Positions 43,779-48,525 of a stretch of 64,000 bases of DNA are shown here, piece after piece; position 1 is the first letter of the stretch, and every line of letters starts with the position of its first letter. Position numbers and translations under genes: made by a program. The notes beneath the pieces were generated by a model. That model worked only from the letters and a program-made list of their open reading frames with translations, ran no database searches and was not told the DNA's origin. The DNA is taken from NCBI GenBank assembly GCA_965263035.1, contig OZ253580.1, forward strand, positions 4,288,001 to 4,352,000, in the 5' to 3' direction. Origin of the DNA: Acidobacteriota bacterium (GTDB taxonomy: Bacteria; Acidobacteriota; UBA6911; RPQK01; JAJDTT01).

Positions 43779-45272
43779 ATGATCAGGAACACCTCGCAGA
43801 TGGGCCGCTCCAGCCACGGTTCCCACATTCTCGCGCTGCTTCTGCTGGGAATCGGCTCCGGTTGCGGGACTCTTCCCGAGCCTCCGTCCGCAACGGAGCC
43901 GCTGGTGCTGAACCGGCAGCAGGAGTTGCTGCTCGACGACGACCGGCTGGTCCGGAGCCGGCAGGGCCTGGAGTTGGTCCAGGCTCGGCTTGAAAAGCAT
44001 CCGGCCAATCCGCTCCTGGTCATCGACCGTCCCTGGGAGCGTCAGGGGATCCTCAATTACGTGGCCATCCTGCATGACGAGGAGGAGGGGCTCTACCGGA
44101 TGTGGTACCAGATCCTGGGCCGGACCGAGGAGGGGGTCAACCGCAGCCATTGCCTCTATGCCCAGTCCTCGGACGGAGTCCGGTGGGAAAAACCGGAGCT
44201 GGGCCTGGTGGACTTCCAGGGTTCGAAGGACAACAACATCCTGTTCCTGGATCCCAACGAGCGGCCGCGGGGAACGCCCGTCTACTGGGTGGTGAAGGAC
44301 TACGCCGAGGCGGACGCCGGCCGGCGGTACAAGATGATGCTCAATCGCTGGGATTTTCGGGGCCGGGGCGTGGGAATCGGCTATTCCGCCGACGGAATCC
44401 ACTGGGAATTCACGCCCTACGTCAACCGGTTGGGCGGGTTCGACACCCACAACCTCTTCTTCTGGGACGACCGGATCGGCCTCTACACCGGGTATTTTCG
44501 AACCCACGTCCGGGGTAAGCGGTCCATCGGACGGGCCACGAGCCCGGACGCCTTCCACTGGTCGGCGCCGGTCACGGTCCACACGCTCGACGAACGGGAT
44601 CCTCCGGAATGGCAGATCTATGGTCCCGGCATCTTCAAATACAGCCGGGCCCGGGACGTCTACGTCATGTACGGGGAGGGCTACGACTCGGAGGACGAGA
44701 TCTTCCGGGGACAGTTGGGCCTGAGCCGGGACGGAATCCACTGGAAGCGGTTCCGCGGCGGATACTTTGCCGACACCAGCACGGGAGCATGGGATGCCGG
44801 CTCGGTTCGGCCGATCCCCGCGGAGGCCGTGGTCGACGGCCGGATGGCCGTTTTCTACGCGGCCAGCGACCACTCCCTGCACGACTGGGAGGGGACGAGG
44901 GGAGTGGGGCTGGCGCTGTATCAGCAGGGGGCGTTCGCCGGTTGGAGGGCAGGGATCGAGGGGACATTGACCACCCGGCTCCTCCTGGCCAAGGACCGGG
45001 AGCCGGGACTGCTGCTGAACGCGGAAGCAGAAGGCGGCGAGATCCGGGCCGAGCTTCTGGACGCCCAGGGCCGGCCTATCCCGGGTTACTCACGCGAGAA
45101 CTGCCGGCCATTGACCGGCAACGGCCATCAACAGGAGGTGGTCTGGGAGGGGCGAGAGAACCTGACGCCGGTGGTGGCCCAGGGGGCCTTCAGCATCCGC
45201 CTGCATCTGAAGCAGGCCACGATCTATGGATTCCGCGTGATTCCTCCCCGAAGCGCCCGAGCGCTGTTTTGA
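43779..45272 (+). CDS. Lipoprotein, beta-propeller glycoside-hydrolase-like
   Basis: GSGC lipobox-like motif; KHPANP, YAQSSDGVRWEKPELG..FQGSKDNN, FDTHN and SRDGIHW repeats; same family as 6312 and 11678. Confidence 0.75.
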   Translation: MIRNTSQMGRSSHGSHILALLLLGIGSGCGTLPEPPSATEPLVLNRQQELLLDDDRLVRSRQGLELVQARLEKHPANPLLVIDRPWERQGILNYVAILHDEEEGLYRMWYQILGRTEEGVNRSHCLYAQSSDGVRWEKPELGLVDFQGSKDNNILFLDPNERPRGTPVYWVVKDYAEADAGRRYKMMLNRWDFRGRGVGIGYSADGIHWEFTPYVNRLGGFDTHNLFFWDDRIGLYTGYFRTHVRGKRSIGRATSPDAFHWSAPVTVHTLDERDPPEWQIYGPGIFKYSRARDVYVMYGEGYDSEDEIFRGQLGLSRDGIHWKRFRGGYFADTSTGAWDAGSVRPIPAEAVVDGRMAVFYAASDHSLHDWEGTRGVGLALYQQGAFAGWRAGIEGTLTTRLLLAKDREPGLLLNAEAEGGEIRAELLDAQGRPIPGYSRENCRPLTGNGHQQEVVWEGRENLTPVVAQGAFSIRLHLKQATIYGFRVIPPRSARALF

Positions 45273-45295
45273 GGAGCGGCGACAGGAGGGGGGAC

Positions 45296-45394
45296 TGGAG
45301 GGGCGGCTTTCTTGCCGCCCACTGGGACAGGCGACTTTCTTGTCGCCTGCTCTTTGCCGTTACTGAAGATTCGGCGGCAAGAAAACCGCCGCTC
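45296..45394. repeat. REP/REPIN-like cluster whose last unit is interrupted by the intron
   Basis: 45296-45319 is a 22/24 inverted repeat of 45373-45394 plus 46025-46026 (intron removed); a middle unit is CAGGCGACTTTCTTGTCGCCTG. Confidence 0.85.
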
Positions 45395-46024
45395 GTGCGC
45401 CCGACATGGGCTGTATCTAAGGGATGAAAGATCCCAAGGGAGGTGATGGGACCAACCCTAGCCGAACCGCAAGGCGTAGCCGCGAGGTGAAGCTGAAGGA
45501 AGCGGAAGGCAAACCCACGACCGCAGGAACACGAACCGGCAGCGAGGCCGGGTGCGGGCGGTGAGCTGGCGAGCAACAGCGAAACCCGAACCCCATCCAG
45601 ACGTACCAGGTAGAGCCGGGCGGCCCGGGGGGAAAGATGCAGCACCTTACTCGGGGAGATCTCAAGGGTGAGAGCCTTTGAGAAGTCAGCAGAGGTCATA
45701 GTAGCGAAGAAGCCGGATAATGCCGGTGGAGCGAAGGACCGAAGGAGTCGGACGGGCCCTATGGTGGACTCGTCAGCGGGATCGCAACTACCTCCGGAAA
45801 CGGGGCGGGGGGAGGCCCCTCGGACCCGGCACGGAAGGCCCAAGGGTGGAACCCGTCAAGCCGGAAGGGCGGAGATCAAGTCCCAGCGGCGGCGAAAACC
45901 GGAAAGAAAGGCCCTTTACGAGGCTCGAAAGAGCCTCGAGTGACTCCAACCGCCGGATACTGAAAACGGTACGTCCGGTGGTGTGGGAGGGTGCAGGGGC
46001 GCAATCCCCTGCACTCGACCCGAT
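45395..46024 (+). ncRNA. Group II intron, class IIC, with no intron-encoded protein
   Basis: 5' GTGCGCCCGACATGGG; IIC-like blocks CTGAAGGAAGCGG.GGCAAAC, AGGAACACGAAC, CTTACTCGGGGAG, GAAGTCAGCAGAGGTCATAGTA; domain V AACCGCCGGATAC..GTACGTCCGGTGGT with CGC triad (from 45948); domain VI GTGCAGGGG-CGCAA-TCCCCTGCAC; ends ACCCGAT. Confidence 0.95.
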
Positions 46025-46054
46025 CATGCCATCGCTTTGCGAGGGGAGACCTCC

Positions 46055-47332
46055 TCACTCGACGATGGTTCCGACCACCACCTCGTCGGTGACGTTGTGG
46101 GGGCTGATGACCTCCCCGCCGCAGAGGTACAGCTTCTTTCCGACCAGGCTCAATTCCGCTGCCAGCCGGTAGACCCCCTTCGAGAGGTCGATGCCGGTGG
46201 CCTCCCGAATCTGCTGCTCCCGCTCGGGGTGGACCGGAAAGGGAAGGATTTTGGAGGGAAGGGTCCGGTAGGTTTTCTCCACCGTGTCGAAGACCAGGAC
46301 GTCGAAGTTGGGGGAACGCACCTCGGGGATCCGGTCCTTGTAACGATAGGGATGGTCCACCGGATAGTCCTTGATGCCGCCGGCCATGATGATGAACCGG
46401 TCCCGGTAGGCGACGGCTTCCATTCCGTGAACCGGAAAGGGCAGGTCCGGGAGTCTCCGCCAGCGCAAGGTCTTGAGATTGAGGACGTAGCCGTCCCCGC
46501 AATGGCGCAGATGACCCTCGAATCGTCCGTTCCTGGATTCGGCGTAGTTGACGTAGTCCCCGCCGAAGACGTAGATGTCGTCACCGACGGCGGTCGCGGC
46601 CGGAGACTCGCGGCCCATCCCGGGAAGTGGAGGTAGATCCCGCCATCCTGCGTCCGGTGCAGCCGTGTCGAAGGCTTCCACCGAGTTTACGTAGGCTCCG
46701 GGATGGTCGCCCATGAAGGGTTGGGCGCCGAACGTGGCCTGTCCACCGACCACCACGATGGTCGTGCCGCTGACGGCGGCGCCGGGCAGGAAACGGCCGA
46801 CTCGGAGGGACGGAAGTTCCTCCCACTGCTTCCGGTCCCCGGTTCCGGAAAGTCGGAACAATCGATTGCTGGTGTTGTCGTTCTGCTCTTCAGGCCAGAT
46901 CACCCAACCGGTAAAGACGTAAAAGTCCTCCCCCACCGTCGCGCCCTGAGGCCACTTGATGCCCACCGGCAACTCGGGCAACAAACCGTACTCCAAGGTC
47001 CGGGTGTCCAGGACCCAGCCCGAGACGTGCCTTCCCCGATCCCGGAGCTGCCACCCCTTGCCCGTGGAGCGCTGGCTCGACGGTTCCCAGCCGGGAAAGC
47101 CTGGCGACCCTGCAGCCAGGATCAGTTCCCCGATGGTCGCCTGGGCCTGTCCCTTGGTGGGCCAAGGCATGGGTGGTCCCATTTCCCAGGCGATGTCGCG
47201 GATCTCCGGCACCTGATCACCGCCTTCACCGCAGCCCGGGCAGAGGGCCAGCAACAGCAGAGGCAGGGTCAGGATCGCTCGGTGGCTACGGTCGGCTCCC
47301 GGTAGCCGTTCGGGGTGGTCCATGGAGCTCAT
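46055..47332 (-). CDS. Kelch-repeat lipoprotein (NanM-like beta-propeller)
   Basis: YVFGG, VVVGG and W..LP.LP Kelch motifs; ATGA overlap with the upstream paralog. Confidence 0.8.
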   Translation of the reverse strand: MSSMDHPERLPGADRSHRAILTLPLLLLALCPGCGEGGDQVPEIRDIAWEMGPPMPWPTKGQAQATIGELILAAGSPGFPGWEPSSQRSTGKGWQLRDRGRHVSGWVLDTRTLEYGLLPELPVGIKWPQGATVGEDFYVFTGWVIWPEEQNDNTSNRLFRLSGTGDRKQWEELPSLRVGRFLPGAAVSGTTIVVVGGQATFGAQPFMGDHPGAYVNSVEAFDTAAPDAGWRDLPPLPGMGRESPAATAVGDDIYVFGGDYVNYAESRNGRFEGHLRHCGDGYVLNLKTLRWRRLPDLPFPVHGMEAVAYRDRFIIMAGGIKDYPVDHPYRYKDRIPEVRSPNFDVLVFDTVEKTYRTLPSKILPFPVHPEREQQIREATGIDLSKGVYRLAAELSLVGKKLYLCGGEVISPHNVTDEVVVGTIVE

Positions 47333-48525
47333 TCCTCGATGATGGTCCCCACCAGGACCTCGTCGGTGACGTTGGCCGGGCTGATCACTTCGCCTCCGGC
47401 CAGGTATAACTTGCCCCGCACCAGGCTCAACTCCGCGGCCAGGCGGTAGACTCCCCGGGAGAAATCGATCCAGTCGACGTCCAGAGCCTTGTGCCTCATC
47501 TCGGGCGGGGGCCGGTAGGGAGGAATCCTCGTGGGCAGGATCCGATAGGCCTCCTCCTCGGCGTCGAAGACCAGCACCTCGAAGTTGGGAGCGGGCCGGT
47601 CGGGGATCCGATCCGCGTAAGCGTAGGGATGGTCCACGGGGTAGTCTCTCATCCCCCCGGCGATGATGACGTATCGGTCCCGGTGCACGGCCGCTTCCCA
47701 GCCGCCGGCGGGAAAGGGCAGGTCGGGAAGCCGCCGCCAGCGCAGGGAGCGAAGGTCCAGCACGTACGCGTCGCCGCCATGCCGGCGATGCGGGTGGTAA
47801 TCGCCGCCTGCTTCGGCGTAGTTGACGTAGAAGCCTCCGAACACGTACACCTTCTCGCCGATGGCGACTGCGGCCATGGACTCGCGGCTGAAGCCGGGTA
47901 TGGGAGGAAGCTCCCTCCACCTGCCGGAGGGGTCGGCCGTATCGAAGATCTCCACCGAGTTGATGTAGACGCCCGGATGGTCTCCGGTGAAAGGGGACGC
48001 TCCGTAGGAGGCTTGGCCGCCCAGGACGACGATCGAAGTTCCTGAGGACACCGCTGCCGCCAGGAAGCGTCCGATGATCAGGGAGGGCATCTCCTGCCAC
48101 CGCCATTCTCCCGACCTGCGGGAGAGCCGCAACACGCGATTTGTCGTGATGTCCAGCCGGTCCTGAGGCCAGCGAACGGTTCCCGTCAGCAGGTAGAAAT
48201 CGTTGCCCACCGACACGCCTTGAGGCCAACTCAGACCTACCGGGGCATTAGGCAGAATCTGGTAACGGTTGGAACGGGTGTCGAAGAGCCAGACGCTGTT
48301 GTGCCTGCCGCGTTCCCGGGTGTTCTCTCTGGGGTTCCATCCTGGATAGCCCGGCGCCCCCGCCGCCACGATCTTGTCGCCCAACACGGCCTGAGCCTGT
48401 CCCTTGGTGGGCCAGGGCAACGGTTTCCCGGGGGTCCAGGTGATGTCTCGGATCCCGGCGCCGGCGGCTTGAACCGGAAACCACAAGCACACCAGCCAGA
48501 CGACGGGTCTCCAGATTCTGCCCAT
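47329..48525 (-). CDS. Secreted Kelch-repeat protein, paralog of 46055-47332
   Basis: Shared PWPTKGQAQA, GDHPG.Y.NSVE.FDT, DYPVDHPY and GVYRLAAELSLV segments. Confidence 0.8.
   Translation of the reverse strand: MGRIWRPVVWLVCLWFPVQAAGAGIRDITWTPGKPLPWPTKGQAQAVLGDKIVAAGAPGYPGWNPRENTRERGRHNSVWLFDTRSNRYQILPNAPVGLSWPQGVSVGNDFYLLTGTVRWPQDRLDITTNRVLRLSRRSGEWRWQEMPSLIIGRFLAAAVSSGTSIVVLGGQASYGASPFTGDHPGVYINSVEIFDTADPSGRWRELPPIPGFSRESMAAVAIGEKVYVFGGFYVNYAEAGGDYHPHRRHGGDAYVLDLRSLRWRRLPDLPFPAGGWEAAVHRDRYVIIAGGMRDYPVDHPYAYADRIPDRPAPNFEVLVFDAEEEAYRILPTRIPPYRPPPEMRHKALDVDWIDFSRGVYRLAAELSLVRGKLYLAGGEVISPANVTDEVLVGTIIEE

Follow-up and report, generated by a model that had tools for sequence, protein, structure and literature searches.

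An ORF-less group IIC intron family inserted after repeated hairpins in an Acidobacteriota genome and probably mobilised by the reverse transcriptase of two sister copies

The window analysed in this work (64,000 nt of the Acidobacteriota bacterium contig OZ253580.1, positions 4,288,001 to 4,352,000) contains, between two convergent genes, a row of short hairpins followed by an ORF-less group IIC intron of 630 nt (45395..46024, + strand), recognised by Rfam matches and identical in sequence to four other copies in the same genome. Upstream lies a co-oriented ORF of 497 aa without a Pfam family (43779..45272, + strand), and downstream a gene encoding a Kelch-repeat protein (46055..48229, − strand), which served to locate the orthologous empty sites described below. 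As the intron begins 122 nt beyond the stop codon of the upstream ORF, its expression by read-through transcription is possible.

Three of the hairpins belong to one repeat family, named here REP-A. The first (45297..45319, − strand; GGCGGCTTTCTTGCCGCC at 45302-45319), identified from its sequence and the family counts, is unoccupied and has the foot CCTCC, of which CCTC mismatches the exon-binding sequence (EBS1) of the introns of this genome. The second (45325..45347, − strand; GGCGACTTTCTTGTCGCC at 45330-45347), with the foot TGTCC, forms a tandem doublet with it. The third is the target of the intron (45373..45394, + strand): the hairpin GGCGGCAAGAAAACCGCC at 45373-45390, spelled GGCGG-CAAGAAAA-CCGCC and one base off the family consensus GGCGRCAAGAAAGYCGCC, is followed by the foot GCTC (45391-45394), the four bases that close the 5' exon and constitute IBS1. 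As single-stranded DNA, this 5' flank folds with −7.7 kcal/mol (z −2.79), and only 1 of 200 shuffled sequences was as stable. Since the fold includes the flanking C-G pair, the intron begins 3–4 nt past the stem.

The ends of the intron (GTGCG starting at 45395 and CCGAT finishing at 46024), the hairpin at 45373-45390, its GCTC foot at 45391-45394 and a GAGC motif at 45571-45574 all lie exactly where the initial annotation had placed them. It had also argued for both boundaries from the first hairpin, the inverted partner of the target, and the repeat was found as described: once GGCGGCAAGAAAACCGCCGCTC^CA is rebuilt, its reverse complement agrees with 45296-45319 at 22 of 24 positions. Stronger proof is provided by a sister species (L059, G007), in which the intron is absent and a hairpin with TCTC is joined directly to CATGCCATCGCTTTGCGA, the 3' exon of the window. 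Besides G007, the orthologous site is empty in G006, G002, and G003.

The assignment to group IIC, proposed earlier from the sequence alone, gained support from the models RF02001 and RF01998, both of which match ribozyme domains, and from the reverse transcriptases (RTs) of sister copies, which are nearest to IIC RTs. Distal domain I (45476..45643, + strand; RF02001, full model, 81.4 bits with the gathering score at 32, E-value 1e-14) holds the EBS1 hairpin, in which GAGC (45571..45574, + strand) lies in the loop GCGAGCAA on the stem GCUG/CAGC and pairs with the exon GCUC. Domains II-III (45646..45739, + strand) match the full model of RF01998 with 47.2 bits against a gathering score of 35. 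In the case of domains V and VI, the full model of RF00029 scores 39.0 bits at 45948-46024, just under its gathering score of 40 (E-value 6e-6 in a 1-kb search). Its alignment delimits a 32-nt domain V (45950..45981, + strand) in which CGC takes the position of the catalytic triad, as is typical of IIC introns, and, together with sequence reading, a domain VI (45984..46024, + strand) ending in GAU, whose bulged A at 46018 is the candidate branch point. The 3' exon opens with a C (46025, + strand) in the IBS3 position, and intron removal restores the REP foot GCTCC.

Domain IV (45740..45947, + strand), defined by alignment with the RT-bearing copies, is a remnant retaining the 5' untranslated arm together with the last codons and the stop of a lost RT gene, and its deletion joint is closed by a small hairpin, GAGGCTC-GAA-AGAGCCTC. 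The longest open frame in the direction of the intron, of 109 codons, is part of this remnant, so that the description of the intron as ORF-less was correct. When six ORF-less domain IV segments were folded with RNAalifold, both partners had changed in 5 of 62 pairs, of which two belong to the joint hairpin; the covariation term was unfavourable (+0.87), and so weak a signal does not allow a conserved RT-binding structure to be claimed for this domain.

The screening of the genome revealed 24 elements, i.e., 19 intact copies of 630–632 nt, three split by insertion sequences (IS), which gives 22 ORF-less copies, and two RT-bearing copies of 1848 nt; a 51-nt fragment was also found. The intact ORF-less copies are 95–100% identical, and all 19 align with the window intron end to end (1–630), from which it follows that they share one deletion joint. 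The initial annotation had supposed that the RT is encoded elsewhere, and a search for a sister copy carrying it found two, both intact, at 529488-531335 and 2572796-2574643. Their RT genes are open (515 codons). The only domains detected in the proteins were RVT_1 and GIIM, a DNA-endonuclease domain being absent; they score 362 bits on TIGR04416 and, against solved structures, 451 bits on that of GsI-IIC (6AR1), 346 on 7UIM, 294 on 5HHL (also 5HHJ), and 124 on LtrA. Judging from these sequence matches, the sister copies encode a class-C RT/maturase without an endonuclease domain.

The ribozyme core (nt 1-249 and domains V-VI) of the ORF-less copies is 100% identical to that of the RT-bearing ones, whereas in domain IV, the domain usually bound by group II RTs, the identity is only about 79–81%, a point against the explanation favoured below. 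The ORF-less domain IV lineage is common to two species at 90% identity and has therefore persisted. In the three related genomes that could be compared, copy number appears to track the cognate RT: two RT-bearing versus 22 ORF-less copies are present in this genome (G000), five versus one in G003, and, with no RT-bearing copy found, a single ORF-less one in G001.

All 24 copies are preceded by a DNA hairpin with GCTC, and in 23 of them the next base is C. The boundaries (GCTC|GTGCG...CGAT|C) are the same for every hairpin family, and beyond the first base the 3' flanks are unique. A perfect hairpin of at least 6 bp right before GCTC was found at 20 of the 23 junctions scanned, versus 269 of 26,036 GCTCC sites genome-wide (1.0%; Fisher's test, p 7e-37); hence the association of the intron with hairpins is far beyond chance. 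Tabulation of the flanks upheld the idea of a dispersed REP-like target, as 19 of the 24 insertions lie in a single family of 223 hairpins. The remaining five are distributed over three further repeated hairpin families (four insertions) and one hairpin outside any family (copy D, GGCCATC-AGGTC-GATGGCC). The bases following the repeated hairpins are GCTCC, CCTCC, TGTCC and similar, and never a T-run, which speaks against intrinsic terminators (G+C-rich hairpins with a T-run) as the target, although hairpins lacking the U tail can, according to the descriptions available, still be counted as "I-shaped" terminators. On a crude gene map obtained with an ORF filter and applied to the occupied sites, 21 of 24 intron-bearing sites are intergenic.

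The REP-A family itself (GGCGRCAAGAAAGYCGCC) numbers 170 exact copies, or 223 within two mismatches, and was found genus-wide; four further hairpin families count 29–89 copies each. The arrangement met most often in REP-A is the direct doublet, with some 10 nt between its members (58 cases); about 40 "-+" pairs with spacers of 20–140 nt are also present, and "+-" pairs do not occur. The high copy number, mostly intergenic location, and fixed inverted pairing are those of REP/REPIN elements. Of two Y1_Tnp loci in the genome, one encodes an intact protein of 238 aa scoring 73.6 bits on NF047646, for which the cut-off is 80, with the nearest REP-A doublet about 700 nt away; the other is interrupted by an in-frame stop, and the hairpin at its flanks is not REP-A but GGGGACATCCTTGTCCCC. 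A search for inverted repeats near the RAYT-like gene was negative. On these sequence data the link with a RAYT would be partial, and the REP label may apply to the family only in part.

Among the strict REP-A sites with a GCTC foot, 17 of 92 are occupied, and the 75 empty ones read GCTCC; none of the 78 sites with other feet contains an intron (p 1.4e-5). The targeting may simply be ordinary IIC behaviour, i.e., any accessible hairpin followed by GCTC is taken, and REP-like repeats dominate as the commonest such hairpins. The insertions at copy D and in the three further hairpin families are consistent with this, as is the general recognition of DNA hairpins by IIC introns described in citing papers. 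In named records from other phyla (among them Chromatiaceae, Piscinibacter, and Verrucomicrobia), introns with an identical 5' end likewise follow assorted hairpins with NCTC, and the empty hairpin-GCTCC sites of this genome comprise 131 different hairpin sequences. However, the second commonest family with such a foot, GGCGGTTGGAAACCGCC-GCTC, is occupied at none of its 38 sites, 20 of which are in the favoured orientation (p 3.7e-4 versus REP-A). Therefore, "hairpin plus GCTC" is not the whole rule, and something more must be read or required. The insertions in G003 and G008 again lie in repeat-family hairpins, and we regard indiscriminate use of hairpins as an alternative to be taken seriously, albeit not the one we would favour.

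The pairing of GAGC with GCTC, suggested earlier for the window intron, was confirmed by covariation across five genomes. GAGC occurs with GCTC in the 24 copies of this genome, two in G004, and one in L078, and GAGG with CCTC in six copies in G003, one in G001, and one in G008; the exception is L088, in which ACTC is found with GAGG. Insertion after a stem-loop with a short EBS1-IBS1 pairing and a one-base IBS3 position is characteristic of IIC introns. No copy of the window intron was found in the sister species G006 and G007, though both carry REP-A (81 GCTC-foot versus 50 CCTC-foot sites in G006, 55 versus 17 in G007), which shows that the repeat exists independently of the intron. We also considered that the guide adapts to the commonest foot, and rejected it, as CCTC is what the introns of G003 read, although the REP-A sites of that genome have the GCTC foot in 62 cases and the CCTC foot in 29.

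The distribution of the copies with respect to replication was analysed from dnaA (2.872 Mb), which coincides with the GC-skew minimum. Twenty of the 24 copies are in the lagging-strand-template sense and four in the opposite one (binomial p 0.0015). At strict sites, the lagging to leading ratio is 14:3 for occupied and 19:56 for empty ones (p 2e-5), and in the broader set of hairpins 20:4 versus 109:160 (p 5.7e-5). A mere reflection of gene orientation was rejected, since only 52–54% of the genes point in the direction of replication. For class C introns, a bias to the lagging-strand template is known, as far as the sources consulted describe it.

Taken together, these data suggest, with a probability that we would put at roughly three in four, that the element at 45395-46024 is a member of a non-autonomous IIC intron family, which obtains RT from sister copies and uses REP-like hairpins as landing pads. 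The ORF-less intron probably spreads by borrowing the RT of the two full-length copies. A single ancestral deletion would have taken the RT gene out of domain IV, the resulting 630-nt ribozyme then multiplying to 22 copies. Read-through from the upstream gene would supply the transcript, from which the intron is presumably excised, and its RNA may form a particle with RT supplied in trans by the two intact 1848-nt copies. This particle would reverse-splice into single-stranded DNA at a short hairpin followed by GCTC^C, the 4-nt EBS1 GAGC reading GCTC and the next base being C, and the lagging-strand template at the replication fork could both expose the DNA and prime the cDNA. REP-like families, GGCGRCAAGAAAGYCGCC foremost, account for most hairpins of this kind in the genome. 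Because these repeats are extragenic and multi-copy, they would serve as harmless landing pads.

A bolder version of this proposal, for which the chances seem to us nearly even but slightly adverse, is that a IIC lineage of the genus has specialised on the conserved REP/REPIN foot, one mobile element thus living on another, with a GAGC/GAGG switch reading GCTC and CCTC, respectively, the two feet found most often. Its main form would be protein-less and SINE-like, with an old domain IV shared across species and a core kept identical to that of a LINE-like partner by recombination or template switching. If this is true, REP hairpins extruded on the lagging-strand template constitute a third natural class of IIC targets, beside terminators and attC sites, and the unoccupied GGCGGTTGGAAACCGCC family suggests that the stem or the loop holds a determinant not recognised so far.

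The copies could alternatively be relics of a past burst, with no present activity. Decay is indeed visible, as copy K carries 33 differences and begins with the mutated sequence GTACG, copy R has 27 differences, and three copies are broken by insertion elements. Contigs of RNA libraries (from three metatranscriptome runs, plus a fourth run whose kind is not recorded, over 44400-47000) extend over the intron and across its 5' junction (e.g., 45382-45676), and none of them joins 45394 to 46025; since DNA carry-over and the other 23 copies are possible sources, such contigs say nothing either way. On the other hand, five copies are identical and six more (five intact and the IS-split X1) are within 1–4 bases of them, both RT genes are open, with 6 differences in 1848 bases between the two copies, and, of the 21 copies examined, 20 have an intact EBS1, copy B being the one in which the search string gave no match. 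A family that is wholly fossil is therefore unlikely.

Less probable still is that the ORF-less copies act or spread without any RT, as hydrolytic endonucleases of single-stranded DNA or RNA (HYERs), possibly with a host or anti-REP function. ORF-less IIC introns some 0.6 kb long are reported to cleave single-stranded DNA, G001 retains its ORF-less copy with no cognate RT found, and the ORF-less domain IV has persisted across two species. Nevertheless, the genome studied here contains two intact cognate RT genes, the core of the ORF-less ribozyme is identical to that of the copies carrying them, the genome in which no cognate RT was found has a single copy, and the lagging-strand bias fits RT-dependent retrohoming.

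Spread at the DNA level, in which the intron travels with the repeat or with a larger composite when a RAYT-type transposase moves it or when repeats recombine with each other, is very improbable: 10 strict occupied sites and three variants do share an upstream composite (the GGGGACTCCGTCCCC hairpin, a C-rich tract, and then REP-A) and the genome has its two Y1-transposase genes, but the composite is empty 17 times and the intron also occurs without it, for which reason it was rejected as part of the mobile unit, and the constant boundaries in every hairpin family, the covariation of EBS1 with the exon, and 3' flanks that are unique from the second base on all argue against such carriage.

Returning to the non-autonomous family with a borrowed RT, several of its components are already known, namely multi-copy ORF-less IIC introns (HYERs), ORF-less introns mobilised in trans, and hairpin targeting. 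ORF-less IIC introns of the HYER kind are reportedly multi-copy in their genomes and are said to form a system without an intron-encoded protein. As far as the descriptions in papers citing Liu et al. (Science 2024) allow a comparison, HYERs resemble the present family in being ORF-less IIC introns of about 630 nt, multi-copy, and with a short guide loop; a length of 637 nt is given for HYER1 in one such paper. The novelty claimed in the initial annotation was thus overrated. Unlike HYERs as so described, the introns reported here have an intact cognate RT in the same genome, and their target-site biology (REP foot, strand bias, and covariation) is defined.

The TeI3 introns of Thermosynechococcus elongatus are not known to belong to the hairpin-dependent IIC kind. 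In that genome, RTs of related ORF-containing introns splice and mobilise ORF-less ones, and, according to the parts of that study used here, a single ORF deletion with identical break-points in all copies likewise preceded their multiplication (to 17 copies, as compared with 22 in the present genome), and copies lie inside, or were struck by, other mobile elements (Mohr et al. 2010, PMC2882425). The TeI3 introns differ in that their targets were reached by diverged specificity (PMC2882425), compared with a hairpin and 4 nt here, and no repeat-family landing pad appears in the parts used. Moreover, in our case the core is 100% identical to that of the autonomous partner, with domain IV coming from another lineage.

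Terminator-targeting class C introns (B.h.I1 and GsI-IIC, the latter providing the nearest solved RT) share with the described family the small ribozyme and the endonuclease-less RT, as well as, in the accounts consulted, insertion a few bases past a stem-loop, a 4-bp EBS1/IBS1, and the lagging-strand preference. Their targets are gene-specific terminators, whereas ours are dispersed REP-like hairpins with a (G/C)CTCC foot and no T-run, and the dominant form here is devoid of the RT gene. The IIC-attC introns (e.g., S.ma.I2), as they are outlined in the sources consulted, are similar in that a IIC sub-lineage has adopted a class of repeated, recombinase-associated DNA hairpins; the targets reported here, however, are short perfect hairpins (about 18 nt) dispersed along the chromosome and probably not integron attC sites.

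IIC introns are the group II introns whose choice of DNA is least understood; only about 4–5 bases and a hairpin are read. With 24 insertions, about 270 empty look-alikes, two guide alleles in sister species, and a clear strand effect, this genome amounts to a natural experiment, in which the rules of hairpin recognition, including those of the unexpectedly avoided family, become directly testable. The same material would offer a bacterial pair of autonomous and non-autonomous retroelements, in which the core of the parasite stays identical to that of its helper, and REP-type repeats on which a retroelement may land safely. Compact ribozymes of the ORF-less IIC kind are, in addition, attractive in practice as DNA cutters that consist of RNA only (HYERs), and the present family would, on sequence grounds, bring a natural target and a matching RT.

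In a literature search on group II/IIC introns with REP, REPIN or RAYT, conducted mostly by title and abstract, the sole link with REP found was a table row listing a group II intron of Pseudomonas putida KT2440 as REP-associated in 2 of 9 copies (Tobes and Pareja 2006, PMC1525189). That intron and the REP-targeting insertion sequences resemble the described family, as far as this table goes, in being mobile elements that insert at REPs (PMC1525189). They differ from it in that, in the genome analysed here, 23 of 24 copies lie at repeat-family hairpins, with one fixed base, a pairing rule, and empty-site controls.

The initial annotation described a hairpin, a GCTC stretch and a 630-nt intron with both of its ends, and this was borne out when the sequence was re-read; the reading was right in substance, and the element is real and well defined. 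The 18-nt hairpin GGCGGCAAGAAAACCGCC (45373-45390) is followed by a GCTC foot (45391-94) and then by the intron itself (45395-46024), which starts with GTGCG and ends with CCGAT, immediately before CATGCC. In the Rfam search, two models of group II D1-D4 matched over their full length, RF02001 (81.4 bits) and RF01998 (47.2 bits), as did the D5/D6 model with 39.0 bits, one bit below its gathering score. D5 (45950-81) carries CGC at the triad position and D6 a bulged A at 46018, while the longest open frame in the direction of the intron is a 109-codon remnant. On the 5' side, a co-oriented ORF ends 122 nt before the intron; on the 3' side, a Kelch-repeat gene running convergently ends 30 nt after it. 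Over the conserved D3/D4 part (45705-45791), contig depth summed to 16,814 in two metatranscriptome runs, about 10x that of the remaining intron (about 1,000); the surplus is probably due to other organisms in the sample that carry related introns.

When the intron was searched by BLASTN in the 6.2-Mb genome of the same bacterium (G000), 30 alignments were obtained, which were resolved into 19 intact copies (630-632 nt, 95-100% identical), two 1848-nt copies bearing a reverse transcriptase (RT) gene, three interrupted copies and a lone 51-nt fragment (G000:C1:56917-56967; nt 5-55 of the intron 5' end, 94% identical). Five intact copies are identical, five others are 1-4 bases off these, and the most divergent (oldest) ones show 27 and 33 base differences. 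Two of the interrupted copies contain a 1782-bp IS3-like element (G000:C1:3067891-3069672 and 3923464-3925242), present in about 10 copies in the genome, and the third one a 4.7-kb element (G000:C1:5180577-5185272) with a 710-codon serine-recombinase-like ORF.

GCTC precedes all 24 elements of this genome, and C follows 23 of them. The hairpin in front is exactly GGCGRCAAGAAAGYCGCC (the REP-A family) in 17 cases and a variant of it in two (the window's copy and copy K); the remaining ones are CGGGGGTTG(C/A)AAACCCCCG (two elements), GGCGGCTGGAAACCGCC and GGGGACAAGGATGTCCCC (one each) and, for copy D, a hairpin outside any family. No T-run follows the hairpins, and the targets are therefore not canonical intrinsic terminators. 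The rule of hairpin plus foot is supported by three controls. A perfect hairpin of at least 6 bp was found before 269 of 26,036 GCTCC sites (1.0%) vs. 20 of the 23 scanned intron junctions, and strict sites (REP-A motif with foot) were occupied in 17 of 92 cases when the foot was GCTC and in 0 of 78 when it was any other (p = 1.4 × 10−5). Within the genome, GGCGRCAAGAAAGYCGCC occurs in 170 exact copies (223 allowing two mismatches), with the feet GCTCC (99), CCTCC (34), GCTCG (19, the occupied sites), TGTCC (16) and others, and there are four further hairpin families of 29-89 copies each.

The REP-A repeat exists independently of the intron. In G000, 75 strict GCTCC sites are empty, as are 17 examples of a longer composite repeat that lies upstream of many occupied sites. 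The sister-species genomes G006 and G007 hold 131 and 72 strict REP-A copies, respectively, and searches of both with the intron gave no match. In the orthologous spacer next to the same Kelch gene, hairpin-TCTC passes straight into CATGCCATCGCTTTGCGA in G007, and an empty hairpin-GCTCC is present in G006, G002 and G003; thus, both intron boundaries are fixed independently. In the corresponding spacer of G008 (G008:C84:1430-3858), where the contig ends inside the intron, one more empty REP-GCTCC comes after the 3' end of a copy; either this spacer was hit independently or the insertion is old and shared.

The proposed EBS1 was confirmed by covariation of the loop with the 5' exon end across genomes. 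The loop GCGAGCAA (45570-77) lies in an RF02001 hairpin for which the model has a variable loop. It was read in 20 of the 21 G000 copies examined and recurs in two copies of G004 and in one of a further Acidobacteriota record (L078), always with the exon end GCTC, whereas the loop GCGAGGAA is accompanied by CCTC in G003 (six copies), G001 and G008 (one copy each). Three more G008 junctions also have CCTC, their contigs stopping short of the loop, and the one exception is L088, with a GAGG loop and an ACTC exon. Since the base of the 3' exon is nearly invariant, EBS3 could not be placed.

Occupancy is also biased with respect to the replication strand. The cumulative GC skew of G000 is lowest at 2.86 Mb and highest at 5.84 Mb, with dnaA at 2,872,067, and the sense strand is on the lagging-strand template in 20 of 24 copies (p = 0.0015; exceptions A, B, I and X2). 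The lagging:leading ratio was 14:3 for occupied vs. 19:56 for empty strict sites (p = 2 × 10−5), i.e., about 42% were filled in the favoured orientation and 5% in the opposite one, and 20:4 vs. 109:160 for all hairpin-GCTCC sites (p = 5.7 × 10−5); gene orientation bias in this genome is weak (52-54%). Such a bias is consistent with reverse splicing into DNA that is single-stranded at the fork, and it has already been described for class C introns. The REP-A repeats themselves are strongly oriented with respect to replication, with 114 unoccupied strict copies in one sense and 39 in the other, so it is mostly the lagging-strand template that carries the 5'-GGAG(C/G) foot. The GGCGGTTGGAAACCGCC-GCTC hairpins, abundant and correctly footed, are never occupied (0 of 38 sites, search pattern GGCGGTTGGAAACCGCCGCTC), even though 20 of them are in the favoured orientation, in which 14 of 33 REP-A sites are filled (p = 3.7 × 10−4).

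An RT encoded elsewhere, as had been postulated, exists in G000 and is of class C. The two 1848-nt copies, 6 bases apart, both hold an open 515-codon frame, whose product contains RVT_1 and GIIM domains and nothing else and scores 362 bits against TIGR04416. Its closest solved structures are IIC enzymes (GsI-IIC, 451 bits; 7UIM, 346; 5HHL/5HHJ, about 290), LtrA reaching 124 bits. The genomes G001, G002, G005, G006 and G007 yielded no cognate RT, their best matches being 36-41% identical.

Compared by domain with the resident RT copy G000:C1:2572796-2574643, the window's intron is 100% identical over nt 1-249 and in D5-D6, 94.8% in D2-D3 and about 79-81% in D4 (346-517). The single ORF-less copy of G001 is 90% identical to the window's copy in D4 and only 93% in the core. 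Since D4 is thus nearer to the G001 copy and the core is identical to the resident RT copy, the G000 family looks like a mosaic of an old ORF-less D4 and a core homogenised to its autonomous partner, which suggests recombination or template switching between non-autonomous and autonomous lineages. The ORF-less copy of G003 shows 98-100% identity to the RT copies of that genome along its whole length and thus represents a separate, recent deletion. The deletion joints vary by species, the start-proximal arm and the last RT-gene codons being always kept.

The label "REP-like" holds only in part. The hairpin is high-copy, with 58 direct doublets and about 40 inverted pairs, all in one orientation ("-+"; no "+-" pairs), but its link to a RAYT is partial. 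One of the two RAYT-like Y1-transposase loci (G000:C1:3477727-3478461) is interrupted by an in-frame stop that follows codon 111, and GGGGACATCCTTGTCCCC hairpins of another family flank it; the other (G000:C1:2482816-2483529) is intact (238 aa), scores below the RAYT model cut-off and has its nearest REP-A at a distance of about 700 nt.

The intron family is a variation on known kinds, not a new kind. Three types of bacterial group II intron targets (homing sites, terminators and attC) are distinguished, and ORF-less introns are called rare, in Zimmerly & Semper (2015); IIC introns that lack an ORF and measure about 0.6 kb have since been named HYERs (Liu et al. 2024, according to papers citing it). 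For T. elongatus, one deletion followed by proliferation of ORF-less introns is described, with related introns supplying the RTs that splice and mobilise them (PMC2882425), and for a group II intron of P. putida, two of nine copies are given as REP-associated in a table from 2006 (PMC1525189). A IIC lineage with a REP-type family as its main target was not found in the papers that our literature search could reach. In a scan of named genome records, the closest named carriers were Acidobacteriota, and in other phyla related introns followed assorted hairpins and NCTC. G000 also harbours another group II intron family, unrelated to the first, with four GIIM matches (L042-L045; G000:C1 about 5056630, 5842998, 983763 and 5538413), RF02003 being found in three of them, and a 23S rRNA gene lies about 2 kb downstream of one of its copies.
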